This document shows, in pieces, positions 18,001 through 50,099 of a stretch of 64,000 bases of DNA (within the stretch, counting starts at the first letter, position 1; each line of letters opens with the position of its first letter). The translations under genes were made by a program, and so were the position numbers. The DNA lies in NCBI GenBank assembly GCA_964016885.1, contig OZ024740.1, positions 407,030,001 to 407,094,000 of the forward strand, in the 5' to 3' direction. The stretch is from Eledone cirrhosa (taxonomy: Eukaryota). The notes beneath the pieces are model-generated. The model saw only the letters and a program-made list of their open reading frames with translations, ran no database searches and was not told the origin of the DNA.

Positions 18001-18729
18001 TACTGGGTGCATTTTAATGTGGAACTAACACTACTACCTTACAGTGTACTGGGTGCATTTTAATGTGGAACTAACACTACTACCTTACAGTGTACTGGGT
18101 GCATTTTAACGTGGAACTAACACTACTACTTTACAGTGTACTGGGTGCATTTTAACGTGGAACTAACACTACTACTTTACAGTGTACTGGGTGCATTTTA
18201 ACGTGGAACTAACACTACTACTTTACAGTGTACTGGGTGCATTTTAATGTGGAACTAACGCTACTACTTTACAGTGTACTGGGTGCATTTTAACGTGGTA
18301 CTAACGCTACTACTTTACAGTGTACTGGGTGCATTTTAATGTGGAACTAACACTACTACTTTACTGTGTACTGGGTGCATTTTAACGTAGAACTAACACT
18401 ACTACTTTACAGTGCACTGGGTGCATTTTAACGTGGAACTAACACTACTACTTTACAGTGTACTGGGTGCATTTTAACGTGGAACTAACACTACTACTTT
18501 ACAGTGTACTGGGTGCATTTTAACGTGGAACTAACACTACTACTTTACAGTGCACTGGGTGCATTTTAACGTGGAACTAACACTACTGCCTTACAGTGTA
18601 CTGGGTGCATTTTAATGTGGATCTAACACTACTACCTTACAGTGTACTGGGTGCATTTTAATGTGGAACTAACACTACTACTTTACAGTGTACTGGGTGC
18701 ATTTTAATGTGGAACTAACACTACTACTT
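1..18729. repeat. 46-bp tandem satellite, ~407 units, runs off the left edge; consensus CACTACTACTTTACAGTGTACTGGGTGCATTTTAAYGTGGAACTAA
   Basis: Unit restarts at 1, 47, 93, 231, 1381 (multiples of 46). Only point variants and two 2-bp deletions (~2685, ~4753). Degenerate units continue to ~18910. Confidence 0.98.
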
Positions 18730-19249
18730 GGCAGGGTATTGAATGCATTTTAATGTAGTACCAGCACTTTTACTTTAGTGTACGGGGGGGGGGGGGCAGT
18801 TTATCGAGGCACCAGCATCACCACATTATAGTGTACTGCATGCATGTTATTGTTGTGTCTGCATTACCACTAGACAGTGTATTGGATGACACCAGCACTA
18901 CCACATTACAGGGTGTAGTGGAGGCAAGATTATTGGAATCATTTTACTTAATCTAACTTCTAGTGGCATGGAGGGGCATTTCTCTTTGATTGCTATTTTC
19001 TTTTTATAAGTCAACAGAGGTTGAAAGGTCATATTCCACAACATTTTGCAGGTATTCCAAGATTAATGAGATTGATGAAGCTAATGGCTAGCTTGAACAA
19101 ATATATGCAGATCAATTTTGGCAGGAAAAACATAGGTGTACAAGAAATTTCTGTAGTAAAGTGAATTCATCTAAAGGCACCTAAGGTCCAGTTGATGGAG
19201 TCAATCATGGCCTTGTTGAGGCACAACTTCTTCACCCACTTAGTCATGG

Positions 19250-20079: not shown

Positions 20080-23000
20080 TATAATGAACAGGACAGGTAA
20101 CAGCACTCTTGGCAGAGTCCAATCCCCACTATAATGAACAGGACAGGTGACAGCACTCTTGGCAGAGTCCAATCCCCACTATAATGAACAGGACAGGTGA
20201 CAGCACTCTTGGCAGTGTCCAATCCCCACTATAATGAACAGGACAGGTGACAGCACTCTTGGCAGAGTCCAATCCCCACTATAATGAACAGGACAGGTGA
20301 CAGCACTCTTGGCAGAGTCCAATCACCACTATAATGAACAGGACAGGTAACAGCACTCTTGGCAGAGTCCAATCCCCACTATAATGAACAGGACAGGTGA
20401 AAGCAATCTTGGCAGAGTCCAATCCCCACTATAATGAACAGGACAGGTGACAGCACTATTGGCAGTGTCCAATCCCCACTATAATGAACAGGACAAGTAA
20501 CAGCACTCTTGGCAGAGTCCAATCCCCACTATAATGAACAGGACAGGTGACAGCACTCTTGGCAGTGTCCAATCCCCACTATAATGAACAGGACAGGTAA
20601 CAGCAGTCTTGGCAGAGTCCAATCCCCACTATAATGAACAGGACAGGTAACAGCACTCTTGGCAGAGTCCAATCCCCACTATAATGAACAGGACAGGTGA
20701 CAGCACTCTTGGCAGAGTCCAATCCCCACTATAATGAACAGGACAGGTGACAGCACTCTTGGCAGAGTCCAATCCCCACTATAATGAACAGGACAGGTGA
20801 AAGCACTCTTGGCAGAGTCCAATCCCCACTATAATGAACAGGACAGGTGACAGCACTCTTGGCAGAGTCCAATCCCCACTATAATGAACAGGACAGGTGA
20901 AAGCACTCTTGGCAGAGTCCAATCCCCACTATAATGAACAGGACAGGTGACAGCACTCTTGGCAGAGTCCAATCCCCACTATAATGAACAGGACAGGTGA
21001 AAGCACTCTTGGCAGAGTCCAATCCCCACTATAATGAACAGGACAGGTGACAGCACTCTTGGCAGAGTCCAATCCCCACTATAATGAACAGGACAGGTGA
21101 CAGCACTCTTGGCAGAGTCCAATCCCCACTATAATGAACAGGACAGGTGACAGCACTCTTGGCAGTGTCCAATCCCCACTATAATGAACAGGACAGGTGA
21201 CAGCACTCTTGGCAGAGTCCAATCACCACTATAATGAACAGGACAGGTGACAGCACTCTTGGCAGTGTCCAATCCCCACTATAATGAACAGGACAGGTGA
21301 CAGCACTCTTGGCAGAGTCCAATCCCCACTATAATGAACAGGACAGGTGACAGCACTCTTGGCAGAGTCCAATCCTCACTATAATGAACAGGACAGGTGA
21401 AAGCACTCTTGGCAGAGTCCAATCCCCACTATAATGAACAGGACAGGTGAGAGCACTCTTGGCAGAGTCCAATCCCCACTAAAATGAACAGGACAGGTGA
21501 CAGCACTCTTGGCAGAGTCCAATCCCCACTATAATGAACAGGACAGGTGACAGCACTCTTGGCAGAGTCCAATCCCCACTATAATGAACAGGACAGGTGA
21601 CAGCACTCTTGGCAGAGTCCAATCCCCACTATAATGAACAGGACAGGTAACAGCACTCTTGGCAGAGTCCAATCCCCACTATAATGAACAGGACAGGTGA
21701 CAGCACTCTTGGCAGAGTCCAATCCCCACTATAATGAACAGGACAGGTGACAGCACTCTTGGCAGAGTCCAATCCCCACTATAATGAACAGGACAGGTGA
21801 CAGCACTCTTGGCAGAGTCCAATCCCCACTATAATGAACAGGACAGGTGACAGCACTCTTGGCAGAGTCCAATCCCCACTATAATGAACAGGACAGGTAA
21901 CAGCACTCTTGGCAGAGTCCAATCCCCACTATAATGAACAGGACAGGTGACAGCACTCTTGGCAGAGTCCAATCCCCACTAAAATGAACAGGACAGGTGA
22001 CAGCACTCTTGGCAGAGTCCAATCCCCACTATAATGAACAGGACAGGTGACAGCACTCTTGGCAGAGTCCAATCCCCACTATAATGAACAGGACAGGTGA
22101 CAGCACTCTTGGCAGAGTCCAATCCCCACTATAATGAACAGGACAGGTGACAGCATTCTTGGCAGAGTCCAATCCCCACTATAATGAACAGGACAGGTGA
22201 AAGCACTCTTGGCAGAGTCCAATCCCCACTATAATGAACAGGACAGGTGACAGCACTCTTGGCAGAGTCCAATCCCCACTATAATGAACAGGACAGGTGA
22301 CAGCACTCTTGGCAGAGTCCAATCCCCACTATAATGAACAGGACAGGTGACAGCACTCTTGGCAGAGTCCAATCCCCACTATAATGAACAGGACAGGTGA
22401 CAGCACTCTTGGCAGAGTCCAATCCCCACTATAATGAACAGGACAGGTGACAGCACTCTTGGCAGAGTCCAATCCCCACTATAATGAACAGGACAGGTGA
22501 CAGCACTCTTGGCAGAGTCCAATCCCCACTATAATGAACAGGACAGGTGACAGCACTCTTGGCAGAGTCCAATCCCCACTATAATGAACAGGACAGGTGA
22601 CAGCACTCTTGGCAGAGTCCAATCCCCACTATAATGAACAGGACAGGTGACAGCACTCTTGGCAGAGTCCAATCCCCACTATAATGAACAGGACAGGTGA
22701 CAGCACTCTTGGCAGTGTCCAATCCCCACTATAATGAACAGGACAGGTGACAGCACTCTTGGCAGAGTCCAATCCCCACTATAATGAACAGGACAGGTGA
22801 CAGCACTCTTGGCAGAGTCCAATCCCCACTATAATGAACAGGACAGGTAACAGCACTCTTGGCAGAGTCCAATCCCCACTATAATGAACAGGACAGGTAA
22901 CAGCACTCTTGGCAGAGTCCAATCCCCACTATAATGAACAGGACAGGTGACAGCACTCTTGGCAGTGTCCAATCCCCACTATAATGAACAGGACAGGTAA

Positions 23001-26000
23001 CAGCACTCTTGGCAGAGTCCAATCCCCACTATAATGAACAGGACAGGTGAAAGCACTCTTGGCAGAGTCCAATCCCCACTATAATGAACAGGACAGGTGA
23101 CAGCACTCTTGGCAGAGTCCAATCCCCACTATAATGAACAGGACAGGTGACAGCACTCTTGGCAGAGTCCAATCCCCACTATAATGAACAGGACAGGTAA
23201 CAGCACTCTTGGCAGAGTCCAATCCCCACTATAATGAACAGGACAGGTAACAGCACTCTTGGCAGAGTCCAATCCCCAGTATAATGAACAGGACAGGTGA
23301 CAGCACTCTTGGCAGAGTCCAATCCCCACTATAATGAACAGGACAGGTGACAGCACTCTTGGCAGAGTCCAATCCCCACTATAATGAACAGGACAGGTAA
23401 CAGCACTCTTGGCAGAGTCCAATCCCCACTATAATGAACAGGACAGGTAACAGCACTCTTGGCAGAGTCCAATCCCCACTATAATGAACAGGACAGGTGA
23501 CAGCACTCTTGGCAGAGTCCAATCCCCACTATAATGAACAGGACAGGTGACAGCACTCTTGGCAGAGTCCAATCCCCACTATAATGAACAGGACAGGTGA
23601 CAGCACTCTTGGCAGAGTCCAATCCCCACTATAATGAACAGGATAGGTGACAGCACTCTTGGCATGTCCAATCCCCACTATAATGAACAGGACAGGTGAC
23701 AGCACTCTTGGCAGATTCCAATCCCCACTATAATGAACAGGACAGGTGACAGCACTCTTGGCAGAGTCCAATCCCCACTATAATGAACAGGACAGGTAAC
23801 AGCACTCTTGGCAGAGTCCAATCCCCACTATAATGAACAGGACAGGTAACAGCACTCTTGGCAGAGTCCAATCCCCACTATAATGAACAGGACAGGTGAC
23901 AGCACTCTTGGCAGAGTCCAATCCCCACTATAATGAACAGGACAGGTGACAGCACTCTTGGCAGAGTCCAATCCCCACTATAATGAACAGGACAGGTGAC
24001 AGCACTCTTGGCAGAGTCCAATCCCCACTATAATGAACAGGACAGGTGACAGCACTCTTGGCAGAGTCCAATCCCCACTATAATGAACAGGATAGGTGAC
24101 AGCACTCTTGGCATGTCCAATCCCCACTATAATGAACAGGACAGGTGACAGCACTCTTGGCAGATTCCAATCCCCACTATAATGAACAGGGACAGGTGAC
24201 AGCACTCTTGGCAGAGTCCAATCCCCACTATAATGAACAGGACAGGTAACAGCACTCTTGGCAGAGTCCAATCCCCACTATAATGAACAGGACAGGTAAC
24301 AGCACTCTGGCAGAGTCCAATCCCCACTATAATGAACAGGACAGGTGACAGCACTCTTGGCAGTGTCCAATCCCCACTATAATGAACAGGACAGGTGAAA
24401 GCACTCTTGGTAGAGTCCAATCCCCACTATAATGAACAGGACAGGTGACAGCACTCTTGGCAGAGTCCAATCCCCACTATAATGAACAGGACAGGTGACA
24501 GCACTCTTGGCAGAGTCCAATCCCCACTATAATGAACAGGACAGGTGAAAGCACTCTTGGCAGAGTCCAATCCCCACTATAATGAACAGGACAGGTGAAA
24601 GCACTCTTGGCAGAGTCCAATCCCCACTATAATGAACAGGACAGGTGACAGCACTCTTGGCAGAGTCCAATCCCCACTATAATGAACAGGACAGGTAACA
24701 GCACTCTTGGCAGTGTCCAATCCCCACTATAATGAACAGGACAGGTGACAGCACTCTTGGCAGTGTCCAATCCCCACTATAATGAACAGGACAGGTGACA
24801 GCACTCTTGGCAGAGTCCAATCCCCACTATAATGAACAGGACAGGTGACAGCACTCTTGGCAGTGTCCAATCCCCACTATAATGAACAGGACAGGTAACA
24901 GCACTCTTGGCAGAGTCCAATCCCCACTATAATGAACAGGACAGGTAACAGCACTCTTGGCAGAGTCCAATCCCCACTATAATGAACAGGACAGGTAACA
25001 GCACTCTTGGCAGAGTCCAATCCCCACTATAATGAACAGGACAGGTAACAGCACTCTTGGCAGAGTCCAATCCCCACTATAATGAACAGGACAGGTAACA
25101 GCACTCTTGGCAGAGTCCAATCCCCACTATAATGAACAGGACAGGTAACAGCACTCTTGGCAGAGTCCAATCCCCACTATAATGAACAGGACAGGTGACA
25201 GCACTCTTGGCAGAGTCCAATCCCCACTATAATGAACAGGACAGGTGACAGCACTCTTGGCAGTGTCCAATCCCCACTATAATGAACAGGACAGGTGACA
25301 GCACTCTTGGCAGTGTCCAATCCCCACTATAATGAACAGGACAGGTGACAGCACTCTTGGCAGTGTCCAATCCCCACTATAATGAACAGGACAGGTGACA
25401 GCACTCTTGGCAGTGTCCAATCCCCACTATAATGAACAGGACAGGTGACAGCACTCTTGGCAGTGTCCAATCCCCACTATAATGAACAGGACAGGTGACA
25501 GCACTCTTGGCAGAGTCCAATCCCCACTATAATGAACAGGACAGGTGACAGCACTCTTGGCAGAGTCCAATCCCCACTATAATGAACAGGACAGGTGACA
25601 GCACTCTTGGCAGTGTCCAATCCCCACTATAATGAACAGGACAGGTAACAGCACTCTTGGCAGAGTCCAATCCCCACTATAATGAACAGGACAGGTAACA
25701 GCACTCTTGGCAGAGTCCAATCCCCACTATAATGAACAGGACAGGTAACAGCACTCTTGGCAGTGTCCAATCCCCACTATAATGAACAGGACAGGTGACA
25801 GCACTCTTGGCAGAGTCCAATCCCCACTATAATGAACAGGACAGGTAACAGCACTCTTGGCAGAGTCCAATCCCCACTATAATGAACAGGACAGGTGAAA
25901 GCACTCTTGGCAGAGTCCAATCCCCACTATAATGAACAGGACAGGTGACAGCACTCTTGGCAGAGTCCAATCCCCACTATAATGAACAGGACAGGTGACA

Positions 26001-29000
26001 GCACTCTTGGCAGAGTCCAATCCCCACTATAATGAACAGGACAGGTGACAGCACTCTTGGCAGAGTCCAATCCCCACTATAATGAACAGGACAGGTAACA
26101 GCACTCTTGGCAGAGTCCAATCCCCGCTATAATGAACAGGACAGGTGACAGCACTCTTGGCAGAGTCCAATCCCCACTATAATGAACAGGACAGGTGACA
26201 GCACTCTTGGCAGAGTCCAATCCCCACTATAATGAACAGGACAGGTGACAGCACTCTTGGCAGAGTCCAATCCCCACTATAATGAACAGGACAGGTGACA
26301 GCACTCTTGGCAGTGTCCAATCCCCACTATAATGAACAGGACAGGTGACAGCACTCTTGGCAGTGTCCAATCCCCACTATAATGAACAGGACAGGTGACA
26401 GCACTCTTGGCAGAGTCCAATCCCCACTATAATGAACAGGACAGGTGACAGCACTCTTGGCAGAGTCCAATCCCCACTATAATGAACAGGACAGGTGACA
26501 GCACTCTTGGCAGAGTCCAATCCCCACTATAATGAACAGGACAGGTGAAAGCACTCTTGGCAGAGTCCAATCCCCACTATAATGAACAGGACAGGTGACA
26601 GCACTCTTGGCAGAGTCCAATCCCCACTATAATGAACAGGACAGGTAACAGCACTCTTGGCAGAGTCCAATCCCCACTATAAAGAACAGGACAGGTGACA
26701 GCACTCTTGGCAGAGTCCAATCCCCACTATAATGAACAGGACAGGTGACAGCACTCTTGGCAGAGTCCAATCCCCACTATAATGAACAGGACAGGTGACA
26801 GCACTCTTGGCAGAGTCCAATCCCCACTATAATGAACAGGACAGGTAACAGCACTCTTGGCAGAGTCCAATCCCCACTATAATGAACAGGACAGGTGACA
26901 GCACTCTTGGCAGAGTCCAATCCCCACTATAATGAACAGGACAGGTGACAGCACTCTTGGCAGAGTCCAATCCCCACTATAATGAACAGGACAGGTGAAA
27001 GCACTCTTGGCAGAGTCCAATCCCCACTATAATGAACAGGACAGGTGACAGCACTCTTGGCAGAGTCCAATCCCCACTATAATGAACAGGACAGGTGAAA
27101 GCACTCTTGGCAGAGTCCAATCCCCACTATAATGAACAGGACAGGTGAAAGCACTCTTGGCAGAGTCCAATCCCCACTATAATGAACAGGACAGGTGACA
27201 GCACTCTTGGCAGAGTCCAATCCCCACTATAATGAACAGGACAGGTGACAGCACTCTTGGCAGAGTCCAATCCCCACTATAATGAACAGGACAGGTAACA
27301 GCACTCTTGGCAGAGTCCAATCCCCACTATAATGAACAGGACAGGTGACAGCACTCTTGGCAGAGTCCAATCCCCACTATAATGAACAGGACAGGTGACA
27401 GCACTCTTGGCAGAGTCCAATCCCCACTATAATGAACAGGACAGGTGAAAGCACTCTTGGCAGAGTCCAATCCCCACTATAATGAACAGGACAGGTGACA
27501 GCACTCTTGGCAGAGTCCAATCCCCACTATAATGAACAGGACAGGTGACAGCACTCTTGGCAGAGTCCAATCCCCACTATAATGAACAGGACAGGTGAAA
27601 GCACTCTTGGCAGAGTCCAATCCCCACTATAATGAACAGGACAGGTGAAAGCACTCTTGGCAGAGTCCAATCCCCACTATAATGAACAGGACAGGTAACA
27701 GCACTCTTGGCAGAGTCCAATCCCCACTATAATGAACAGGACAGGTGACAGCACTCTTGGCAGTGTCCAATCCCCACTATAATGAACAGGACAGGTGACA
27801 GCACTCTTGGCAGTGTCCAATCCCCACTATAATGAACAGGACAGGTGACAGCACTCTTGGCAGTGTCCAATCCCCACTATAATGAACAGGACAGGTGACA
27901 GCACTCTTGGCAGTGTCCAATCCCCACTATAATGAACAGGACAGGTGACAGCACTCTTGGCAGAGTCCAATCCCCACTATAATGAACAGGACAGGTGACA
28001 GCACTCTTGGCAGAGTCCAATCCCCACTATAATGAACAGGACAGGTGACAGCACTCTTGGCAGTGTCCAATCCCCACTATAATGAACAGGACAGGTAACA
28101 GCACTCTTGGCAGAGTCCAATCCCCACTATAATGAACAGGACAGGTAACAGCACTCTTGGCAGAGTCCAATCCCCACTATAATGAACAGGACAGGTAACA
28201 GCACTCTTGGCAGTGTCCAATCCCCACTATAATGAACAGGACAGGTGACAGCACTCTTGGCAGAGTCCAATCCCCACTATAATGAACAGGACAGGTAACA
28301 GCACTCTTGGCAGAGTCCAATCCCCACTATAATGAACAGGACAGGTGAAAGCACTCTTGGCAGAGTCCAATCCCCACTATAATGAACAGGACAGGTGACA
28401 GCACTCTTGGCAGAGTCCAATCCCCACTATAATGAACAGGACAGGTGACAGCACTCTTGGCAGAGTCCAATCCCCACTATAATGAACAGGACAGGTGACA
28501 GCACTCTTGGCAGAGTCCAATCCCCACTATAATGAACAGGACAGGTAACAGCACTCTTGGCAGAGTCCAATCCCCACTATAATGAACAGGACAGGTGACA
28601 GCACTCTTGGCAGAGTCCAATCCCCACTATAATGAACAGGACAGGTGACAGCACTCTTGGCAGAGTCCAATCCCCACTATAATGAACAGGACAGGTGACA
28701 GCACTCTTGGCAGTGTCCAATCCCCACTATAATGAACAGGACAGGTGACAGCACTCTTGGCAGTGTCCAATCCCCACTATAATGAACAGGACAGGTGACA
28801 GCACTCTTGGCAGAGTCCAATCCCCACTATAATGAACAGGACAGGTGACAGCACTCTTGGCAGAGTCCAATCCCCACTATAATGAACAGGACAGGTGACA
28901 GCACTCTTGGCAGAGTCCAATCCCCACTATAATGAACAGGACAGGTGAAAGCACTCTTGGCAGAGTCCAATCCCCACTATAATGAACAGGACAGGTGACA

Positions 29001-31883
29001 GCACTCTTGGCAGAGTCCAATCCCCACTATAATGAACAGGACAGGTAACAGCACTCTTGGCAGAGTCCAATCCCCACTATAATGAACAGGACAGGTGACA
29101 GCACTCTTGGCAGAGTCCAATCCCCACTATAATGAACAGGACAGGTGACAGCACTCTTGGCAGAGTCCAATCCCCACTATAATGAACAGGACAGGTGACA
29201 GCACTCTTGGCAGAGTCCAATCCCCACTATAATGAACAGGACAGGTAACAGCACTCTTGGCAGAGTCCAATCCCCACTATAATGAACAGGACAGGTGACA
29301 GCACTCTTGGCAGAGTCCAATCCCCACTATAATGAACAGGACAGGTGACAGCACTCTTGGCAGAGTCCAATCCCCACTATAATGAACAGGACAGGTGAAA
29401 GCACTCTTGGCAGAGTCCAATCCCCACTATAATGAACAGGACAGGTGACAGCACTCTTGGCAGAGTCCAATCCCCACTATAATGAACAGGACAGGTGACA
29501 GCACTCTTGGCAGAGTCCAATCCCCACTATAATGAACAGGACAGGTGAAAGCACTCTTGGCAGAGTCCAATCCCCACTATAATGAACAGGACAGGTGAAA
29601 GCACTCTTGGCAGAGTCCAATCCCCACTATAATGAACAGGACAGGTGACAGCACTCTTGGCAGAGTCCAATCCCCACTATAATGAACAGGACAGGTGACA
29701 GCACTCTTGGCAGAGTCCAATCCCCACTATAATGAACAGGACAGGTAACAGCACTCTTGGCAGAGTCCAATCCCCACTATAATGAACAGGACAGGTGACA
29801 GCACTCTTGGCAGAGTCCAATCCCCACTATAATGAACAGGACAGGTGACAGCACTCTTGGCAGAGTCCAATCCCCACTATAATGAACAGGACAGGTGACA
29901 GCACTCTTGGCAGAGTCCAATCCCCACTATAATGAACAGGACAGGTGACAGCACTCTTGGCAGAGTCCAATCCCCACTATAATGAACAGGACAGGTGAAA
30001 GCACTCTTGGCAGAGTCCAATCCCCACTATAATGAACAGGACAGGTGAAAGCACTCTTGGCAGAGTCCAATCCCCACTATAATAAACAGGACAGGTAACA
30101 GCACTCTTGGCAGAGTCCAATCCCCACTATAATGAACAGGACAGGTGACAGCACTCTTGGCAGAGTCCAATCCCCACTATAATGAACAGGACAGGTGAAA
30201 GCACTCTTGGCAGAGTCCAATCCCCACTATAATGAACAGGACAGGTAACAGCACTCTTGGCAGAGTCCAATCCCCACTATAATGAACAGGACAGGTGACA
30301 GCACTCTTGGCAGAGTCCAATCCCCACTATAATGAACAGGACAGGTGACAGCACTCTTGGCAGAGTCCAATCCCCACTATAATGAACAGGACAGGTGACA
30401 GCACTCTTGGCAGTGTCCAATCCCCACTATAATGAACAGGACAGGTGACAGCACTCTTGGCAGTGTCCAATCCCCACTATAATGAACAGGACAGGTGACA
30501 GCACTCTTGGCAGTGTCCAATCCCCACTATAATGAACAGGACAGGTGACAGCACTCTTGGCAGTGTCCAATCCCCACTATAATGAACAGGACAGGTGACA
30601 GCACTCTTGGCAGTGTCCAATCCCCACTATAATGAACAGGACAGGTGACAGCACTCTTGGCAGTGTCCAATCCCCACTATAATGAACAGGACAGGTGACA
30701 GCACTCTTGGCAGTGTCCAATCCCCACTATAATGAACAGGACAGGTGACAGCACTCTTGGCAGAGTCCAATCCCCACTATAATGAACAGGACAGGTGACA
30801 GCACTCTTGGCAGAGTCCAATCCCCACTATAATGAACAGGACAGGTGACAGCACTCTTGGCAGTGTCCAATCCCCACTATAATGAACAGGACAGGTGACA
30901 GCACTCTTGGCAGAGTCCAATCCCCACTATAATGAACAGGACAGGTGACAGCACTCTTGGCAGAGTCCAATCCCCACTATAATGAACAGGACAGGTGACA
31001 GCACTCTTGGCAGAGTCCAATCCCCACTATAATGAACAGGACAAGTGAAAGCACTCTTGGCAGAGTCCAATCCCCACTATAATGAACAGGACAGGTGAAA
31101 GCACTCTTGGCAGAGTCCAATCCCCACTATAATGAACAGGACAGGTGACAGCACTCTTGGCAGAGTCCAATCCCCACTATAATGAACAGGACAGGTGAAA
31201 GCACTCTTGGCAGAGTCCAATCCCCACTATAATGAACAGGACAGGTGACAGCACTCTTGGCAGAGTCCAATCCCCACTATAATGAACAGGACAGGTGACA
31301 GCACTCTTGGCAGAGTCCAATCCCCACTATAATGAACAGGACAGGTGAAAGCACTCTTGGCAGAGTCCAATCCCCACTATAATGAACAGGACAGGTGACA
31401 GCACTCTTGGCAGTGTCCAATCCCCACTATAATGAACAGGACAGGTGACAGCACTCTTGGCAGTGTCCAATCCCACTATAATGAACAGGACAGGTGACAG
31501 CACTCTTGGCAGAGTCCAATCCCCACTATAATGAACAGGACAGGTAACAGCACTCTTGGCAGAGTCCAATCCCCACTATAATGAACAGGACAGGTAACAG
31601 CACTCTTGGCAGAGTCCAATCCCCACTATAATGAACAGGACAGGTGAAAGCACTCTTGGCAGAGTCCAATCCCCACTATAATGAACAGGACAGGTGACAG
31701 CACTCTTGGCAGAGTCCAATCCCCACTATAATTAACAGGACAGGTGACAGCACTCTTGGCAAAGTCCAATCCCCACTATAATGAACAGGACAGGTAACAG
31801 CACTCTTGGCAGAGTCCAATCCCCACTATAATGAACAGGACAGGTAACAGCACTCTTGGCAGAGTCCAATCCCCACTATAATG
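20080..31883. repeat. 50-bp tandem satellite, 236 units; consensus TATAATGAACAGGACAGGTGACAGCACTCTTGGCAGAGTCCAATCCCCAC
   Basis: Exact 50-bp period with five 1-bp indels (net -3). Both ends bounded by TATAATG. The reverse complement encodes VGIGLCQE / VLSPVLFII, a remnant of RT motif B. Confidence 0.98.
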
Positions 31884-36189: not shown

Positions 36190-36730
36190 ATTGAATATAA
36201 AAGAGAGACAAACACAGACATATACATACATGTATTCAAATCATAAGGAACCAGGCTTGCCAGGGCGAAAAAAATACTAACCATGAACAATAGGGTTTGC
36301 CAGACTCAACTTAAAGGAACAAATCAAGAAAATAAATACAAACCGATATTGGGACAACTGCCAGACACCCAGACAGCTTTGGTAATGTTGTTTCGCAATT
36401 ATAGTGAAGGGAATTACTAATTCTTTTGCTCATCAGAGGGTGTAAAATTAGTAAACCCTTCACTTCTAAGTATCTCAGAAGACTGAATAGTGTGCGTATA
36501 TAAAATAACGCACATGGCATCAGAACCTAGTGTGTCTCATAAATGCATACTACTAAAAATAGCAGCCGGTTTCTATTTATTTTCTTGATCTACTCTTCCA
36601 AACCGAGTCTGGCAAACCCTAAAACCCTATTGTTTATAGTTAGTATCTCCTTCACCCCAGCGAATCTGGTCCCTTACAATCCGAACACATATACGTATAT
36701 CTCCGTGTTCATCTCTCTTTTATACTCCAT
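36190..36730. repeat. Long imperfect inverted repeat (arms 36190-36345 and 36567-36730); MITE or foldback element
   Basis: Arms align without gaps except an 8-bp tandem duplication in the right arm. About 35 mismatches over ~155 bp by hand count. Confidence 0.9.
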
Positions 36731-36744
36731 CATATTATATATAT

Positions 36745-37805
36745 AAATAATAATGAAATATTGTGTACAGTGCTCAGGTGCACTACAACTCATCAAAAAG
36801 TGTATGTATAGTACATAGGGTAATGTACAAACATCAGGAAAATGAACAGTGCATGAGTCATGATACACACGTGTACATGTATATGGAAGGGGTACATCAG
36901 GTGTAGTTTTGGCGTACTTCGGGAAGCATGAGTGTTTTAAAGGATGCAGTGTCTTGACAGCTAACAACTGATGCAGGCAGTTTGTTCCATGCTTCAGCAA
37001 CTCTGAGCGTGAAAAAATGTCTATGAAAGTCATGGGAGCTGTGCTGTTTTCTGATTTTGTAGGCATGTCCACGTGTGTTAGACACATGGAGATCAAAAAG
37101 GTGCTCAGGGTTGCAATTGGCGAGATGGTTAATAACTTTGTGGGTATTTACCAAGTCCATTGCCAGATGTCAGAGCTTCAATGAATCCATGCCCAGGGAA
37201 GCAAGGCATTCAGAGTATGGTAGGTGTCTGATGGAGGGTATGCGCTTGGTTGCACGTCTCTGAACAGTTTCCAGGAGGTCAATGTTCTGAGCAAGATAGG
37301 GGTTCCAGACTGATGATGCGAATTCCAAGTGTGGTCGTACCATAGCTGTATACAGTTTTAAATAGATGGCTGGAGAGCGGCTAACAAAGGTCTTGCTGAG
37401 TGATGCCAAGACACCCTCGGCCGTCTTGACAATCTTAGAGACATGCTTTGTCCAACGCAAATCGCTGCTGACTGTAATACCCAGGTCACGTTCACAAGAG
37501 GACTTCTTGATATCAGTGTTGTGGAGGGAGTATGTGGACGCTGGATTTTTCCTCCCAAAATGCATGGTGGTACACTTGTCCACAGCCAGCTTCAGTTGCC
37601 AGTCTGTGATCCATTGCTGCATTGTATCCAGGTCTGATTGTAGGAAAGAGTTGTAGATTTCAGGATCAGTCCTTTTGATTTCAAGGTACAGCTTGATGTC
37701 ATCTGCATATTTCAGTACCGTGGCATTCTGTAAGTTGGCATCTACGTCATTAATATATGCCACAAACAAAAGGGGACCAAGAACAGATCCCTGTGGTACA
37801 CCAGA
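36745..37805 (-). mobile_element. 5'-truncated CR1-clade LINE (RT 3' half plus 3' UTR)
   Basis: SGVPQGSVLGPLLF, YADD, ERDLGI, RPHLEFAS, LETVQRRATK, TRGH, FFTLRV..WNKLP. One in-frame stop at ~37170; (ATT)n-like tail. Confidence 0.93.
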
Positions 37806-38849
37806 AAGGATACAGTACATTAGTTGGCTGTAGGTTAAGAGTGAATGGTATAAGTCTACTAACTAGATTGCCATTGTTTTTAAAATAGTCAAGAATGCTT
37901 GTATGTGTAACATCTGCACTGTTTCAGACATGTAAACAGTTGTTTAATGAGGATCAATCACATTTCTGCTTTGTAAAGGACCAGCTTCTATTCAAAGCTA
38001 AAATGTGATGACAAAGTCTATAAGATGAACATCATTTTTCAGCTTACTTTAGATAAACGAATGATTACCCTAGATTTGACTGTAGTAAACATTAACTGTT
38101 TTAGATATTTTCTTTAATTTTTTTTTTTATCTAGAATTTTATCCCACATTGAGTTCTACAAAAATATTCTGTTATTTTGCAAGATTTAAAAAAAAAAGTG
38201 CACTATAGGTTGTTATTTTTATGAATATATTTTCTCTTTAAAACACTTTTTGTTGTTTATTGTCTTATTAAAATTAGGGTGAAGACTGTCCATAAAACGT
38301 TGGCATGGAATCTGTAAGAATTCTAGAACCAAATAAGTTTAGGAACCACTCTTTTAGAATATTCAAACCTTCAATAATTAGTTTGAACTGCTTTTTAATT
38401 TCAACTTTTTCATTTATCCTTCTGTCAGTATTTTCTTTAGATTATTGCTGTTGTAGTTCTAGTAAACTCTGGATTAGCAGGACTATGGTAGTTAGGCGGA
38501 CAGTTAGTTTCAGTCCACAAACCTGACACTCAAAATAAATGATTCTTACACTTAGTTGAGAACCAGAATGGCCATTCCAGCATACTGCTATTTATCATAA
38601 GGGGTACAGTTTGGTATTCTATGTTGCCTTTCCACCATTGTCTTGTCCTGTATACCTGTTGTTGTGTAGCTCCAGATCAGTTCTGAGTGAACAGTCCTGT
38701 GTTATGTAGGTAGATGATTGAATGACTGGGACTGAACACAACTAATAGATCTAAGGTTTTAATTACACCAGGTATCCACTTAACTGATTGAAACCCATAC
38801 TGCTCACTCTATTAAACAGTACTAAATCATAAAGCATGTAGTATAAGTC

Positions 38850-42190: not shown

Positions 42191-42198
42191 TAATTTAT

Positions 42199-42952
42199 TG
42201 AACATGACCTGGGCATTACGGTCAACAGCGATTTGCGTTGGACGAAGCACGTCTCTAAAATTGTCAAGAAGGCAGAGGGTGTCTTAGCATCACTCAGTAA
42301 GACCTTTGTCAGCCGCTCTCCAGCTATCTATTTAAAGCTGTACATAGCTATGGTGCGGCCACACTTAGAATTTGCATCACCAACCTGGAACCCCTATCTT
42401 GCTCAGAACATTGACCGCCTGGAAACTGTTCAGAGACGTGCAACCAAGCACATACCCTCCATCAGACACCTACCATACTCTGAATGCCTTGCTTCCCTGG
42501 GCATGGATACGTTGAAGCTCCGACGTCTGGCAACTGACTTGGTAAACACCCACAAAATTATTAACCATCTTGCCAACAACAACCCTGAGTACCTTTTTGA
42601 TTTCCATGTGTCTAACACACGTGGGCATGCCCACAAAGTCAGAAAACAGTACAGTTCCCATGACTTTCGGAAACATTTTTTCACGCTCAGAGTTGCTGAA
42701 GCATGGAACAAACTACCTGCATCAGTTATTAGCTGTCGAAACACTGCATCCTTTAAAACCTTCATGCTTCCTGAGATTCACCAACACTACACCTAATGTT
42801 CCCCCTCCATACACATACACACATGTATATCATGACTCATACACTATTCACTTTGCTGACATTTGTATATTATTCTATGTACTATACATGCACCTTTGAT
42901 GAGTTATAGTGCACCTGAGCACTTTACACAATAATTTCATTATTATTATTAT
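42199..42952 (+). mobile_element. 5'-truncated CR1-clade LINE, same family as 36745-37805, opposite orientation
   Basis: ORF 42233-42796 (RPHLEFAS, LETVQRRATK, WNKLP). 3' UTR gatgagttatagtgcacctgagcac and (ATT)n tail. Confidence 0.93.
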
Positions 42953-43147: not shown

Positions 43148-43215
43148 CTCTCTCTCTCTCTTTCTATCTCTCTCTCTTTCTATCTATCTCTCTTTCTATC
43201 TGTCTCTTTCTATCC
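43148..43215. repeat. (TC)n/(TATC)n microsatellite; further pieces at 44068-44115, 49894-49951 and 49994-50035
   Basis: Direct reading; these tracts bound each Tx1-like insertion. Confidence 0.9.
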
Positions 43216-43220
43216 ATATC

Positions 43221-44066
43221 AAGCGATCCATTCGACAGGGATGCCCTCTCTCCTCCCTTCTGTATGTATTGACTCTCGAGCCACTACTGCGGAAGTTGGA
43301 GCTATTGCAGGGCATCCCTCTGGAACCGGGACTGCAGAAAGCGGCGTCGGCCTACGCCGACGACATGACAGTAATGGTGTCGAGTGCCTCGCAAATCGAG
43401 GAACTCGGCACCTTACTGAAGGAATATGAAAGGTTCACAGGAACTGGGACAAGTCCATCGGTTTGCAACTCAGATCGTGGAGAGGCAAACCGATGCCTTC
43501 CGATGGCGTCATCGGACGCTGGACGGAAGGACCAGTAAAGCTGTTCGGGGTCTGGTTTGGTCTGGACCTCCAGGTGGAGAAGAACTGGAACGAGGTGTCG
43601 GCCAAGGTGTTTGCACTCACCCAGAAGTGGGCCGAGTGCAAACTATCCTTGAAAGGTCGAGCGGAGGTGGCGAACACTTTTATAGCGTCCGCCATCTACT
43701 ACCGCTTGACCATCGTGCCTTGTCCAGCCAAAACGCTCGCCAAAATGGAGCGCGCGCTCTTCCAATTCCTTTGGAAGAGGCGGGCTCCTTTGGTGAGAAG
43801 ATCCATCTGCTGCCAACGCCCTTCCAACGGAGGGCTGGGGATGCCGTGGCTGACGATGCGCAAACACGCGCTCAGGCTGCGGCATCTCTACGTATTCCTC
43901 ACTGGACAACCAGTGTGTTACCCATATGAAATGTCTCCCCCTATTGGGGAAAATCGACTAATTTTTAAATTACATTTGTGATAATATTTTACACGTTTTT
44001 ATTGTATGTAAACTTCCCCCTTTGTATTTGTCCCCTTCTTTTGTGCCCCTGTGGCTAATAAAGAAA
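43221..44066 (+). mobile_element. 5'-truncated, internally deleted Tx1/L1-clade LINE copy
   Basis: 43221-43917 aligns to 48143-48852 (RQGCPLS, YADD, GGLG), then jumps to the 3' UTR (CCCCTATTGGGG...GTGGCTAATAAAGAAA). Confidence 0.9.
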
Positions 44067-44300
44067 CATATCTATCTCTCTCTATCTCTCTTTCTATCTA
44101 TCTCTCTTTCTGTCTAACGTGTGGAATATCGCCGGTAAGTTTTTTGTTAATTTCTATGCAAAAGAACCGATCTAATTGTTTGAAAAAAATACAACACTTT
44201 GTAGATTAACCCCCAAGCTGAATTGTCAGCTGGGTGGTAATCCCATTTTATTTAAAAGTTTGTTTTAAAATATCAAATTTTACAAAGTAAAAAAAAAAAC

Positions 44301-46172
44301 TTGAGCAACACTAGAACGCTGGAGAACGTTAATAGAGAAAAGAGAGAGAAAGAGGCAGATATTAACGTTATATCTGCTTCTGCTGCTATGGACGTTGCCA
44401 TAGATACTGTCACAAAAGAAAAAAATATATCAACATTTGAAAATGTTACAATTTCTACCGCCGAAGCAGAGAAAAATGACAATAACACACGGGAAAACAC
44501 GGCAAGAAAACCCATTGACATACATACACATGAAAAAGACATCAACAACTCTACAGATACATCTACACATAAAATTTCCAACAACGATAACATCATTATT
44601 AACAACAACATCACACAAAAAAAGAAAATGTCTTTTGCTGACACAGTCAACAAGAAACAAGATTTTATAAATCTTGATATCTCCAACGCAAGAGATATGC
44701 TCCAGCAAGGGAGAAAATTTGTAACTTTCGAAGAAAGAGGTGGGTTTAGAATTAACTCACCCCTTGAAATAAAGGAAGACACAAACCGCCGATCAGTCAC
44801 TTTTAGGACTGTGTCAAATTCGTCAAGAAAACCGACATTTGTTAATCAGTCAGATATAGAAGATTCTTTCAAGGAGATTCTAGGAAATGTCGATTTTCTC
44901 CAGCGAGGAAGACAGTACGGAAGTGTTTCCGTACTGTTTAAAAGCGAGGCACTGGCCCAAAAAAACTCTGTGACACCAATAGTGTCAAAAGCATACACCT
45001 TTTTCCCTACATACATGGGGAAAAGGACACAAAAAATAAAAATAAAAAACATACCTCCAAGCATTAACATCTGGTGGATCTTGGCTGGCTTCGTAGAGCC
45101 AGAAACAGACATAATACTTTCGATATGAAAATCCATTCGACAAAGGTGGGCGGGCACCGATTTGGAGATTCTGTTGCAAATGAAACCGGAGAGAATCTCC
45201 AAAATACCCGAAAGAGTCGTTATTGATAATAACAACAAAATAAACATTTCGGTAGAAGGAAGAAAATTTCACTGCTTTCGCTGTGGTAGCACATCTCACC
45301 TAAAAGCCTCTTGTCCACAAGCACACAACAGCAACATCATAAAAAAAACGCTATTACCAACACCAACACCAAAACAACCACCACCACCACCACAAGTACA
45401 ACGACAGACGAAACGAGCAACCACACCAAAACAAACAGACACTCAACCAACAACAACAGAAAAAACAGAGACAACACCCCTGAAGAACACATCCCCACTC
45501 CATCCCACTCCATCAAACACTACCACAAACACACATACCGAAACACCACCACCACCACACAACATACCTTTACCCCACACACCTGACGATGATTATTCAT
45601 CGACGGATGAAGCTGCTTCTCCTTCTTTAAGTGAAGAAGAGGGAGAACCGCGGAAATCCAAAAAACAAAAAAAGAGACACCACAAAACCCCCAAAACTCC
45701 AATCACCAACACACAACCACAGACACAAACAACAACACAAACAACACCACAGTCAAACATCCCCCTATCAGCAAAACCAGCACCAACACCACCCCAAACA
45801 CAAGCACCCACCATAAAAAGAAAACTCCCGGATGAACAACAAACTAAAACAATACAACAAAAACACAAACAACAATACGCATACATCAACACAAACAACA
45901 AGAGTTTGATGGAGGTCATCTCCCAAAACCCCAAGGTGGAGACGGAGGGCAAAACTTTCGTCAAGGCAGAATCGTCTCCACACCTTAAACTTATAAGGGT
46001 TTCTATGGAAACCTATAAAGACCTGAAAATTAAATTTTCACAGGACGTGGGCAACCCCTGCCACAAACCCATCAACCGCGTCCTGTTGAAAGGTTTCCCC
46101 ACCCCAGCCAACACCCCATCCAGCACCCAAATGGAGATTGAGCAACCCGATCTCCAGGAAACGAAAAGGTAA
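44301..46172 (+). pseudogene. LINE ORF1 (gag-like, zinc knuckle CFRCGSTSHLKASC, P/T/Q-rich tail) with one in-frame TGA at 45126-45128
   Basis: Track ORFs 44301-45128 and 45162-46172 are in the same frame, separated only by the TGA. First in-frame ATG is at 44388. Confidence 0.85.
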
Positions 46173-46213
46173 GTGCACCTTTCGTCCTTTTTCTCCAACT
46201 TTTCTTCACCAAC

Positions 46214-49200
46214 ATGGCTGGTTTACGAGTTGGAACCGTGAATGTGCGTGGCCTAGGGATGCACTGGAAACAGGACCAACTTTTAAACGACCTTAGGTCA
46301 CACAGTATGGATGTGATAGCCATCACCGAGTCCAGAATCCACAACAGGCAGCAACTAACCCCCATCTTCGACGACTTTGAGATCTACGCATCTCTCTGTC
46401 AGCCAGGAGGTGGAGGTAGAGTGGCTGTTATGTTTCGGAAGAACCTGGACATCGGAGTACAGCAAGTACACTTGGACCCGGAGGGTAGACTGGTAGTCCT
46501 AGACGTGAACAGTATCGGAGGTGGAGCCTTCAGACTGGTGGCCGTTTATGCCCCGACCGGGCAATCGCAATCACGGCCAGACTTCTTTAAGCGTCTAGAG
46601 TCTTTTCTGGGAACGTCTCGCTCCTTACTTTTAGTGGGGGACTGGAATGGTATCCTAGATGCACGATGGGACTATGTGGGAGCATGTCCCAGTAGAGCGG
46701 GGTGCAACAGCCTCAAAACTTTAATCGGCCAATTCCAACTGGCCGATAGGTATCGACTGGATTTCCCGACTGCACCACAGTGGACGTGGGTAAACCGCAG
46801 TGGGACATCTAGATCGTATTTAGATAGGTTTTTCATTAGAGAAAGGGACAAGGATATGTTAAGCTGTCCACGAATGCACATGGTTGCCTATTCAGATCAC
46901 AAGTTAGTCGTCTGCTTAGTCAACCGTGATAGAATACATAGACAGGGTCCCGGATACTGGAAGCTGAACGTGTCGTTGCCGGCACGTAAAGCTTACAGTG
47001 AACGGATAAGTAAACTAGTCAAGCAACAGTTAACGGGAGCCATCGTCAACAATAGATGGTGGTACTCTCTCAAGAAAGCAATTAGAATAGAATCGATAGG
47101 GTATAGCAGAGAGTTAGCCTTAGAGAAAAACAGAATAGAAAGAGAACTAGTAGCCAAGGTAGAGGAGGCACTTAGAAGTGGCAACGCGGCTAGAGTGTTA
47201 GCGTCGAGAACGGCACTGGACCAGTTCTTCGATGCAAAACACGAAGGCTGCGTGGTCAGAAGCAAAACACGTGCTCTAGGAAACGAAGGAGCGAAAGCTG
47301 TCAGCTGGGCCCGAGTGGCGGAGGCAAAAAGTGGCAACAAGTCCACGATTCGGTCTTTGAAAGACCAAAACGGACGCGTGCTACTTGACCCCAAGCAAAT
47401 GTGCGCGGCCTTTCAGCGGCACTTTGCGCGACTGTTTGAGCAGAACGACGGTGAGCCGAACGGGGCAATGGACTTTAGTTCATACCTCGACGGCCTGCCG
47501 CGTCTCTCGAACACGGACGCCGAGTTCTGCGAAAGACCGATCACGGACACTGAGATACGGGACGCTCTGGGCCGCTGCGGGAAACGCAAGTCACCCGGTC
47601 TAGATGGTCTACCCTACGAATTTTACATAGGCATGCCGGACTTGTTCTCTGGCGTCCTCGAAGCCATCTACTGCAATTGGCAGCAGAACGGGAGAATTCC
47701 CAGTTCTGCAGGCAAGGGCGTAGTAACGCTGATCAGGAAAGACGAGAACAAGGGGGACGAAATTAACAACTTCAGGCCCATAACTCTGCTCAACACAGAG
47801 TTAAAGATTTTGGCCAAGGTGCTAGCGACAAGGTTGGCGCTTGTCGTCGAGAACCTGGTAGGGAAAGCGCAAATGTGTGCAATCCCGACCAGGTCCATAC
47901 ACGACAACCTCCACCTCATGCGATACATCATAGAGGGGGTGGGTAGTAAACCCGGCTTCGGTGGGGCTCTGATCAACTTGGATCAGTCTAAGGCATTCGA
48001 TAGGGTCGATCATCGATACTTGGAAGCGGTTCTCAAGGCGGCCGGTTTCGGTCCCGTGTTCAGAGGATGGATCGAGGCGATGCACACCAGCATCTGCTCA
48101 AGGGTCAAGGTGAACGGCTACCTATCGGAGCCGTTCGCAATCACGCGTTCCATTCGACAAGGGTGCCCTCTCTCCTCCATTCTGTATGTATTGACTCTAG
48201 AGCCACTACTGCGGAAATTGGAGCTGTTGCAGGGCATCCCCCTAGAACCGGGACTGCGCAAAGCGGCGTCGGCTTATGCCGACGATGTGACAGTAATGGT
48301 GTCGAGCACCTCGGAAATCGGGGTGATCGGCAACATACTGAAAGAATACGAAACGCTGACGGGAGCAAAACTAAACCCAGACAAGTCTGTCAGTTTGCAA
48401 CTCGGTACGTGGAGAGGCAAACCGATGACATCCGACAGCGTCGTTGGACGCTGGACGGACGGACCGGTGAAATTGCTCGGGGTCTGGTTCGGTCCAGACC
48501 TCCAGGTGGAGAAAAACTGGAACGAGGTCACGGCCAAGGTGTTTGCACTCACTCAGAAGTGGGCAGAGTGCAAACTGTCCTTGAAAGGTCGAGCGGAGGT
48601 GGCGAACACTTTCATAGCGTCCGTCATCTACTACCGCTTGACTGTCGTGCCTTGTCCCCGTGAACACCTCGCCAAGATGGAACGCATGCTCTTCCAGTTT
48701 CTGTGGAAGAAGCAGGCTCCGCTGGTGAGGAGATCCGTCTGCTGTCAGCACCCTTCCAACGGAGGGCTGGGAATGCCGTGGCTGATGATGCGCAAACATG
48801 CGCTGAGGCTGCGGCATCTCCAGGTATTCCTCACCGACCCCCAACCGGTGTGGGCACCGTTTGTGAGACAGGCTTTCCCACAGCTCGTCTCGCTAACGGA
48901 GCTGCAGTCCTGGGTGAAGAAAAGACCGAAAACGATGGGCGCCTGGCACATTGAATGCGCTCAGGCGCTCACAGTCCTCTGGCAAGCGGGCGCAGCAATC
49001 AGTGGAGACTCCACTCGACATTCTATAGAGGGATTGTACGTTACAAGGGCGACGACGTGCTCGGAGAGACTCTGGGCGTCGAAGACGATGAGCTCACCAG
49101 TATGTTTGGTAGGACTTTCCGCCCGGGACCTATGGACAACTTCCAGAGGTCCCTGGCCTGGCAGTGCTACCGAGGAGCTCTACCGGTTCGTGACAAGATC

Positions 49201-49659
49201 TACAGGCACGGACGCCCTGGCAGGGATCCTTCCAAGAGGACGTGTCCAAGATGTGCGCAGGACATTGAAACAGTTCTGCACGCAATTGTACACTGCCCGG
49301 GCGTAAGCGACCTGTGGAACTATGCAGAACAACTGCTGTCGCGTATGGGACAAATACAGTTGACTGCCGAGTCCATAGTAAGGATCAAACCGCCAGACTC
49401 TTTCAAAAACGAAAGAGAGGCGGTTTTCCTCTGTACGGTGGCTATGGTGAAAGAAATTATATGGTGGACGAGGTTGAGAGGACTGAGGACAGATGCCTTT
49501 CTCTCCGGACAACAATTGATTCCCTTCTTTAAGTATCACTTTAGAAGGAGAATCAGGGTGGAGAGAGAGGCACTGCACCCCAGTAAATTTACTGAAAGGT
49601 GGGTGAATGAAGCAAAAATAGCCCGAGTGATTGGGCCTTCTCTGTTTATAAGCCTGTAG
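46214..49659 (+). CDS. LINE ORF2: AP endonuclease, reverse transcriptase and C-terminal zinc finger; one 1-bp frameshift near 49017
   Basis: TVNVRGL, ITES, VYAPT, GDWN, SYLDRFF, SDHK (APE); KSPGLDG, FRPITLLN, LDQSKAFDRVDH, RQGCPLS, YADD (RT); CPRC..ETVLHAIVHC in the shifted frame (ORF 48955-49659). Confidence 0.93.
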
Positions 49660-49909
49660 GTTGAGGAAGAGAGCAAAAGGAAGAAAGGAGCACTTGCACA
49701 ACACGCTCCTCGAGTTGAGGGTTGTTCTATCGACGGGGTATTAAACAACCCATTTGTGGCGCCTCCCCCCTATTGGGGATTTCGATTGTTGAAATTGTTT
49801 GTTTTTATATTTTTTACACGACTGTATGTAAAATCCCTGGCATGTCTTTGTATTGTCCCCTTTCTTGTTGCGCCCTTGTGGCTAATAAAGAAATCTATCT
49901 ATCTCTCTT

Positions 49910-49940
<31 letters not shown>

Positions 49941-49951
49941 ATCTATCTTTC

Positions 49952-49994
49952 TATTGTCCCCTTTCTTGTTGCGCCCTTGTGGCTAATAAAGAAA
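49952..49994 (+). mobile_element. Exact repeat of the terminal 43 bp of the Tx1-like LINE
   Basis: TATTGTCCCCTTTCTTGTTGCGCCCTTGTGGCTAATAAAGAAA is identical to 49851-49893. Confidence 0.9.
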
Positions 49995-50099
49995 TCTATC
50001 TATCTTTCTCTCTCCTCCTCTCTTTCTTTCGCTCTGTCAACACTTTTCAGTTTTGTCATTGATAAGAGAACTTCTCTAGTGTTGACACCATGTAAAATA

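Follow-up and report, generated by a model that had tools for sequence, protein, structure and literature searches.

Why should three ends of one kind of retrotransposon lie head-to-tail in a single microsatellite, and what brings such an element there? The question is raised by a stretch of 64,000 nucleotides from the cephalopod Eledone cirrhosa (assembly GCA_964016885.1, contig OZ024740.1, positions 407,030,001 to 407,094,000; hereafter the window), in which 3' ends of long interspersed nuclear elements (LINEs) stand in one TATC/TC array. An earlier note on this DNA had described three same-strand ends, and the window bears it out: the sequence GTGGCTAATAAAGAAA has exactly three matches, at 44051, 49878 and 49979, all on the + strand (mean in shuffles 0.08; three matches reached in 0/100). 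The order of elements and spacers and the absence of poly(A) are also as it claimed. The stack probably represents three insertions, in one orientation, of a young L1-group LINE clade at pre-existing TATCT sites, with a loose nick and pairing of a read-through RNA tail as the likely means by which the site is chosen.

The full-length copy in the middle of the stack belongs to a family that we call A. It begins at 44107 with TTTCTGTCTAACG, a start common to 30 loci (shortened or changed in three of these), and it is dead: a TGA at 45126-45128 interrupts the first open reading frame (ORF1), and the second (ORF2) has lost 1 bp near 49014. It differs by 1.0% from L067, an intact copy whose ORFs are open at 596 and 1148 aa. 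The first, truncated copy had been called clearly diverged from the full-length one, and its identity to it is 85%, because it is a member of a sister family (B), not an aged copy of family A; its identity to other family B copies reaches 98%. Divergence had also been taken to make all the copies independent, which fails for the 43-bp piece at the end of the stack, as this does not differ from the last bases of the full-length copy (BLAST match 48/49). The family B 3' end has 1099 first-look candidates in the genome, and the DNA next to family A copies yielded two further families, D and E. All four families make up a single clade (Shimodaira-Hasegawa-like approximate likelihood ratio test support 99, quick tree) inside a larger group with cuttlefish proteins. 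Between element end and repeat stands a family-specific 2-base linker, mostly TC in family A, and in family B CA (28/30) or TA (2/30). All seven sister-family ends shown continue into TATC.

In the 3.0-Gb genome, in which the genome-wide counts were made, family A has 1228 exact 27-base ends, and 1012 of these are followed by TCTATCT. Such flanks could be the element's own tail, and TATC on the 5' side its own extra sequence, with insertion random or AT-biased. Junctions were read in 60 high-scoring family A copies with both ends visible (27 truncated, 33 full-length; the set excludes duplicates, the copy in the window and one that has no 3' end). TATC stands on the 5' side in 31 of the 33 full-length copies. 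We rejected these as a test of targeting because the 5' end of the element is itself repeat-like, even at non-TATC sites (L086, L090, L279), so that 5' flanks overstate the preference. The truncated copies lack this repeat-like end, and 20/27 still have at least two perfect TATC units within 30 nt upstream; TATCT is on the 5' side in 23/27, and the repeat in opposite orientation in 0/27. A CR1-like LINE from the same window, with the junction visible at 25 of 30 loci, served as control and gave 0/25 for two TATC units (p 7e-9 vs family A) and 2/25 for TATCT. Background windows held two units in 2 of 3332. Among the first 30 family A copies by position, 11 of 18 visible junctions have the two-unit repeat, and four of the seven negatives are copies that end TCAAT, which are treated below. 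Family B has a TATC repeat at 12/19 junctions, with rougher boundaries; these were set against one reference, several are still internal breaks, and some duplication calls of 8-9 nt there are probably chance. The 5' flanks of truncated copies, compared with those of the controls, are therefore not random, and the proposal of a microsatellite-targeting element is upheld. The array had been described as TC/TATC, which is correct; what counts for targeting, though, is the TATC unit.

Target duplications are ~9-22 bp long and start directly after the linker. At L013 a 13-bp duplication starts TATCT and then departs from the repeat into unique sequence, and duplications with unique sequence are also found at L014, L020, L099, L100, L166, L187, L223, L228 and L237; therefore, the site pre-exists and can be short (~5 bases). 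Tails may contain extra TATC units, as at L014 and L187, where these units are missing from the targets, and this is what a tail of the element's own would give. The unique-sequence duplications, however, begin TATCT on both sides, and the TATC run of one host repeat has received three insertions (L017, L024 and L163). Among 30 paralogues of this host repeat, 28 are empty, one is L024 and one has an older relative nearby. Empty sites had been proposed as a check, and these 28 hold the repeat run without the element; ten of them read TATCTATCT (by eye) and the rest are TC or TA runs. At L013, a 512-base contig of another organism (run X7, from a different study) matches both flanks, which are separated there by 64 letters and in the reference by ~900; the contig thus lacks the element and a short repeat next to it. 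Random insertion with TATC as the element's own sequence is thus largely refuted already by 5' flanks, empty sites and unique-sequence duplications, and we regard it as highly improbable. Pre-existing sites are almost certainly targeted. The specificity is for a short motif and not for a long microsatellite, and about a tenth of family A is on another target.

Some observations on these loci stand apart. The host repeat behind L131-L160 is unclassified, with internal inverted arms and a TATC/TA run at its end; it has 84 candidates and was hit three times. The segment L013:1531-2156 (3' part of family A) was found in two other organisms (runs X4 and X6) at 97-100% identity and low depth, and among the matches listed there is no long piece of the unique L013 flanks. 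These matches could be due to recent transfer between species or to DNA carry-over, being compatible with either. At the 5' junction of L083, extra bases match the element interior just before the ORF1 start (~window 44371-44387; by eye), which suggests a template jump.

The other target is that of the copies in which the family A end continues TCAAT (125/1228). A silent marker (window 49371) is present in 7/9 TCAAT copies versus 0/49 others (p 1.2e-7). In a set of 30 TCAAT loci, which partly overlaps the first marker set and in which four loci are one duplicated array, the marker is found in 17/20 typed copies, and two TATC units in 0/17 visible 5' junctions. Selection by the marker gave 77 exact sites, of which 30 were read and 28 had a 3' end; 22 of the 28 read TCAAT, and the other six are old copies (88-96.5% identity to L067), without the linked change in 5/6 (the typed ones). 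All young marker carriers end TCAAT (22/22). A duplication of 9-20 bases stands directly after the TC linker in 17 of 27 TCAAT copies, three of the 27 being of the main lineage (shuffled pairings: mean 0.08, maximum 2), and the base before it is a pyrimidine in 17/17. All ten long copies of the sub-lineage group together as a clade (support 0.92) that sits within TATC-tailed copies, and they diverge by 0.48% on average, where the main group has a median of 0.87%. One young sub-lineage, which accounts for the majority of the TCAAT ends, has moved from TATC repeats to AATAT sites outside microsatellites. The changes common to its members are Q449R in ORF1, D932Y in ORF2 and two that are silent. 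No shared change was found in endonuclease residues 1-245 among the eight sub-lineage copies covering them, and two of these eight sequences equal the family majority.

The loci L086, L090, L247 and L298 (window's contig, near 35.25 Mb and 36.18 Mb) are one tandem array that was hit repeatedly by the TCAAT sub-lineage; its unit holds TATC-like and AATATT motifs and is a candidate for the origin of the switch. Main-lineage copies at L079, L257/L284 and L265 end TCAATCT, possibly a halfway tail between TATCT and AATAT.

Priming by L1 needs as few as four paired bases, and this pairing helps to shape insertion sites (PMC3649969). In L1 site choice nicking is necessary and not sufficient (PMC1950540), and in R2 a short 3' homology to the target aids priming (PMC13708176). 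For the element described here, the strand nicked by the enzyme would be the one facing TATC, with the nick at a step 5'-AGATA^R or 5'-ATATT^R. Since the AATAAA signal is so close to the terminus of the element, transcription would continue beyond AATAAA-GAAA and take in a few bases of the parent's flank before the RNA is cut and tailed. The nicked end would pair with these read-through bases and not with poly(A), and reverse transcription would copy the linker and sometimes an extra TATC unit; the extra units of L014 and L187 agree with an RNA reaching into the repeat. The duplication would result from a second cut, made ~10-20 bp downstream. A parent copy with a different flank would then hand a different target to its daughters. 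Since the switch came without a shared endonuclease change, the RNA tail likely helps to choose the landing site. In the fullest form of this idea, the target is carried as heritable RNA, the bases of the parent's landing site serve as a short guide, and one parent with an altered flank turned about a tenth of the family away from TATC microsatellites and towards AT-rich unique DNA while the endonuclease stayed as it was; we give this form an even chance.

Specificity may instead be coded in protein, as is assumed for Kibi, Koshi and Tx1L, so that ORF2 reads TATC, the switch came via D932Y (or ORF1 Q449R) and the tail mirrors the target. Choice led by the endonuclease is the published default (PMC4494074, PMC8869645), and D932Y occurs in 9/10 TCAATA copies versus 1/36 others, that one a TCAATG member of the same lineage, and in another count in 18/20 typed TCAAT copies. 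However, no change shared by the sub-lineage lies in the endonuclease domain or in the hairpin loop within it. Residue 932 lies in a short loop outside that domain and distant from it in sequence, and it is variable (D, D, D and E in the element's own families; A, S and S in close relatives). L318 (duplicated as L319, a single insertion) has the marker and a TCAAT tail but retains D932. We consider protein-coded specificity rather unlikely and favour a choice of site led by the tail.

Several points weigh against the tail-led account of TATCT targeting and its switch. The two-unit repeat is missing on the 5' side of 7/27 truncated copies, and 10/27 TCAAT copies have no duplication of at least 9 nt. 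About 6/17 of the duplications found are, by eye, within short tandem arrays, in which flanking sequences would match in any case. At least one copy of the main lineage (L285) also ends TCAATAT. The sub-lineage shares ORF2 D932Y and ORF1 Q449R, which makes a protein cause possible. The evidence from empty sites comes from loci other than the window's own, and we infer both the read-through and the nick position from DNA junctions.

Stacking of copies follows readily from targeting of TATC. Every insertion would leave TATC on both sides, and later copies of sister families could land beside it, giving head-to-tail stacks. A sister 3' end is present within 150 nt upstream in 27/60 copies, and many copies also have one downstream. 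Starts of (TATC)4 number ~27,700 genome-wide (one phase counted), against thousands of clade copies, and the tails and duplications of earlier copies probably make up a large share of the available targets. Self-recognition was considered as a cause of stacking and is not needed, given this probable large share.

In the window, the full-length copy stands between 17-bp repeats (44095, 49896), and the 43-bp piece between 13-bp repeats (49940, 49997), the same 13-mer being found again at 49920. Both pairs are likely target duplications, likely and not certain because each motif recurs once more in the array. The repeat around the 43-bp piece suggests a separate insertion. This piece could also have arisen by re-priming during insertion of the full-length copy, or by local duplication, and both are compatible with TATC targeting. 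Such an origin fits its identity to the end of the neighbouring copy and the further occurrence of the 13-bp repeat in the spacer. A simple duplication does not agree with a tandem unit of 101 bases that is repeated for only ~54, and lone ends of 54-100 bp with duplications of their own exist elsewhere (L223, L228, L237). We find an origin other than a third insertion doubtful.

Classification of the element draws on its predicted proteins. ORF2 matches the apurinic/apyrimidinic endonuclease-like (APE) domain PF03372 (E 3.7e-13), with catalytic residues E39, Y112, D143, N145, D204 and H229 conserved, and the reverse transcriptase (RT) domain PF00078 (E 2.7e-27). A C-terminal zinc finger (PF13966, E 1.6e-5) is just under the curated cut-off, and its residues C1011, C1014, H1023 and C1028 are invariant in 29 relatives. 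The best solved relative by sequence is human LINE-1 ORF2p (E 5.7e-54, vs 9.3e-23 for R2), which is also the best fold match in Foldseek (E 1.5e-54, template modelling score 0.63); this closeness is limited by the few retroelement clades for which solved structures exist. Among named proteins, two of the cuttlefish Acanthosepion pharaonis come nearest (52% and 47% over the RT), and apart from unnamed relatives the RT tree comprises plant L1-like proteins and two from cuttlefish, with no named Tx1-clade reference. ORF1 proteins of the Tx1 clade carry a gag-like CCHC knuckle. One such motif was found in ORF1 here (zf-CCHC E 0.071), below the cut-off. From APE, RT and zinc finger together, the element is assigned to the L1 group, which comprises the L1 and Tx1 clades. 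The 27 truncated copies and the duplications of ~9-22 bp agree with the 5' truncation and short duplications of that group, in which target duplications are near 13-15 bp (PMC4245944). The vertebrate-type L1 clade has a poly(A) tail and a TTTT/A target, and poly(A) was found at 0/60 ends. By a published rule, a target preference is one sequence type in >20% of flanks (PMC4494074), a share exceeded by the 20/27, 11/18 and 12/19 junctions reported above. Duplications start TATCT or AATAT and not with the (TC)n or (TTC)n of Kibi and Koshi. In its mode of action the element is like Kibi, Koshi and the crocodilian Tx1 families, and judged by target alone it is neither of the first two.

APE elements are known to target microsatellites of ACAY, AC, TC, TTC and TAA (PMC3812793) and of TTCC or TTTC (PMC4494074), and how these retrotransposons choose among sites is not well understood (PMC3812793). 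Kibi on (TC)n and Koshi on (TTC)n, which are Tx1-clade LINEs of teleosts, are likewise APE-type non-LTR (long terminal repeat) elements in a pyrimidine-rich microsatellite (PMC4494074, PMC3812793). In contrast, the element described here has the unit TATC and a cephalopod host, uses 5-base core sites and has one sub-lineage outside the repeat; the comparison is by target only. Crocodilian Tx1 elements on (TTCC)n or (TTTC)n (Tx1-1_Crp, Tx1-2_AMi) also form several sister families on one tetranucleotide repeat (PMC4494074); their repeat unit and phylum differ, and the accessible portion of that report describes no switch within a family. Human LINE-1 ORF2p (PDB 8sxt, 9k6i) is the best match in sequence and fold, and its duplication lengths are similar. 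Human LINE-1 also nicks before a purine, as we infer for the present element, and pairing of a few RNA and DNA bases helps to select its sites (PMC3649969, PMC1950540). However, L1 pairs poly(A) with T-tracts, whereas the DNA copies here are without poly(A) and the pairing bases would be the parent's flank. In R2, too, priming is helped when the RNA ends in a few bases derived from the target, and engineered homology arms can redirect insertion (PMC13708176). R2 has a restriction-like endonuclease and one fixed site in ribosomal DNA; here the element is of APE type and the redirection is apparently natural. The L1-Tx1 elements of Octopus vulgaris (13 young families, 421 insertions) are possibly of the same clade, likened by description only (PMC13282606), and the word 'target' is absent from the main text of that study.

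No TATC/GATA-targeting element of this kind and no natural target switch through the tail were found among the papers listed by literature searches; these families may be described in sources outside those searches, namely subscription papers, Dfam, Repbase or the PMC13282606 supplements. What is new here is the switch of target by a sub-lineage within a family. Two groups that are ~0.7% apart have the same endonuclease domain and use different sites, and both contain long open ORF2 frames, so the question of protein versus RNA can be tested directly in them. New specificities are usually attributed to the endonuclease, and tail-led choice would offer a simple route for frequent target change in Tx1-like elements. 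If true, a natural target switch has been caught within a family whose copies differ by <1%. TATC/GATA markers in this genome will often adjoin these elements.

Features of the retrotransposon stack, in positions of the window
Feature	Position	Strand	Remarks
Host array, left part	43148..43217	+	Compound TC/TATC repeat, period ~16
5'-truncated copy of sister family B	43218..44066	+	~890 bp internal deletion near 43915
Family B linker CA, then TATC/TC repeat	44067..44106	+	Includes left copy of likely target duplication
Likely target duplication of full-length element, left copy	44095-44111	+	Overlaps the element's repeat-like first bases
Full-length family A LINE	44107..49893	+	Ends AATAAA-GAAA, without poly(A)
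ORF1	44388..46172	+	596 aa in L067; interrupted here by TGA at 45126-45128
Weak CCHC knuckle (one) in ORF1	near 45270-45320	+	zf-CCHC E 0.071
ORF2	46214..49659	+	1148 aa in L067; predicted APE endonuclease, reverse transcriptase (YADD), C-terminal zinc finger
Silent marker site	49371	+	G here and in main lineage; A in AATAT-targeting sub-lineage
AATAAA signal	49884..49889	+	Target repeat starts 6 bases later; putative use in polyadenylation
Family A linker TC and array spacer, with right copy of likely duplication at 49896-49912	49894..49951	+	
43-bp family A 3' end, likely a separate, heavily truncated insertion	49952..49994	+	13-bp duplication 49940-49952 / 49997-50009
Linker TC and host array, right part	49995..50035	+	

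Other repeats occupy much of the window. Two satellite arrays lie at 1-18753 (46-bp units, ~408 copies, 94% matches) and 20080-31883 (50-bp units, ~236 copies, 98% matches), and a degenerate (AT)n repeat of ~4.9 kb lies at 57825-62716. The CR1-like LINE that served as control is a young 3' end with an (ATT)n tail at 42194-42950 (3126 candidates), and a second, longer piece of a similar CR1-like element is present on the minus strand at 36677-37862.

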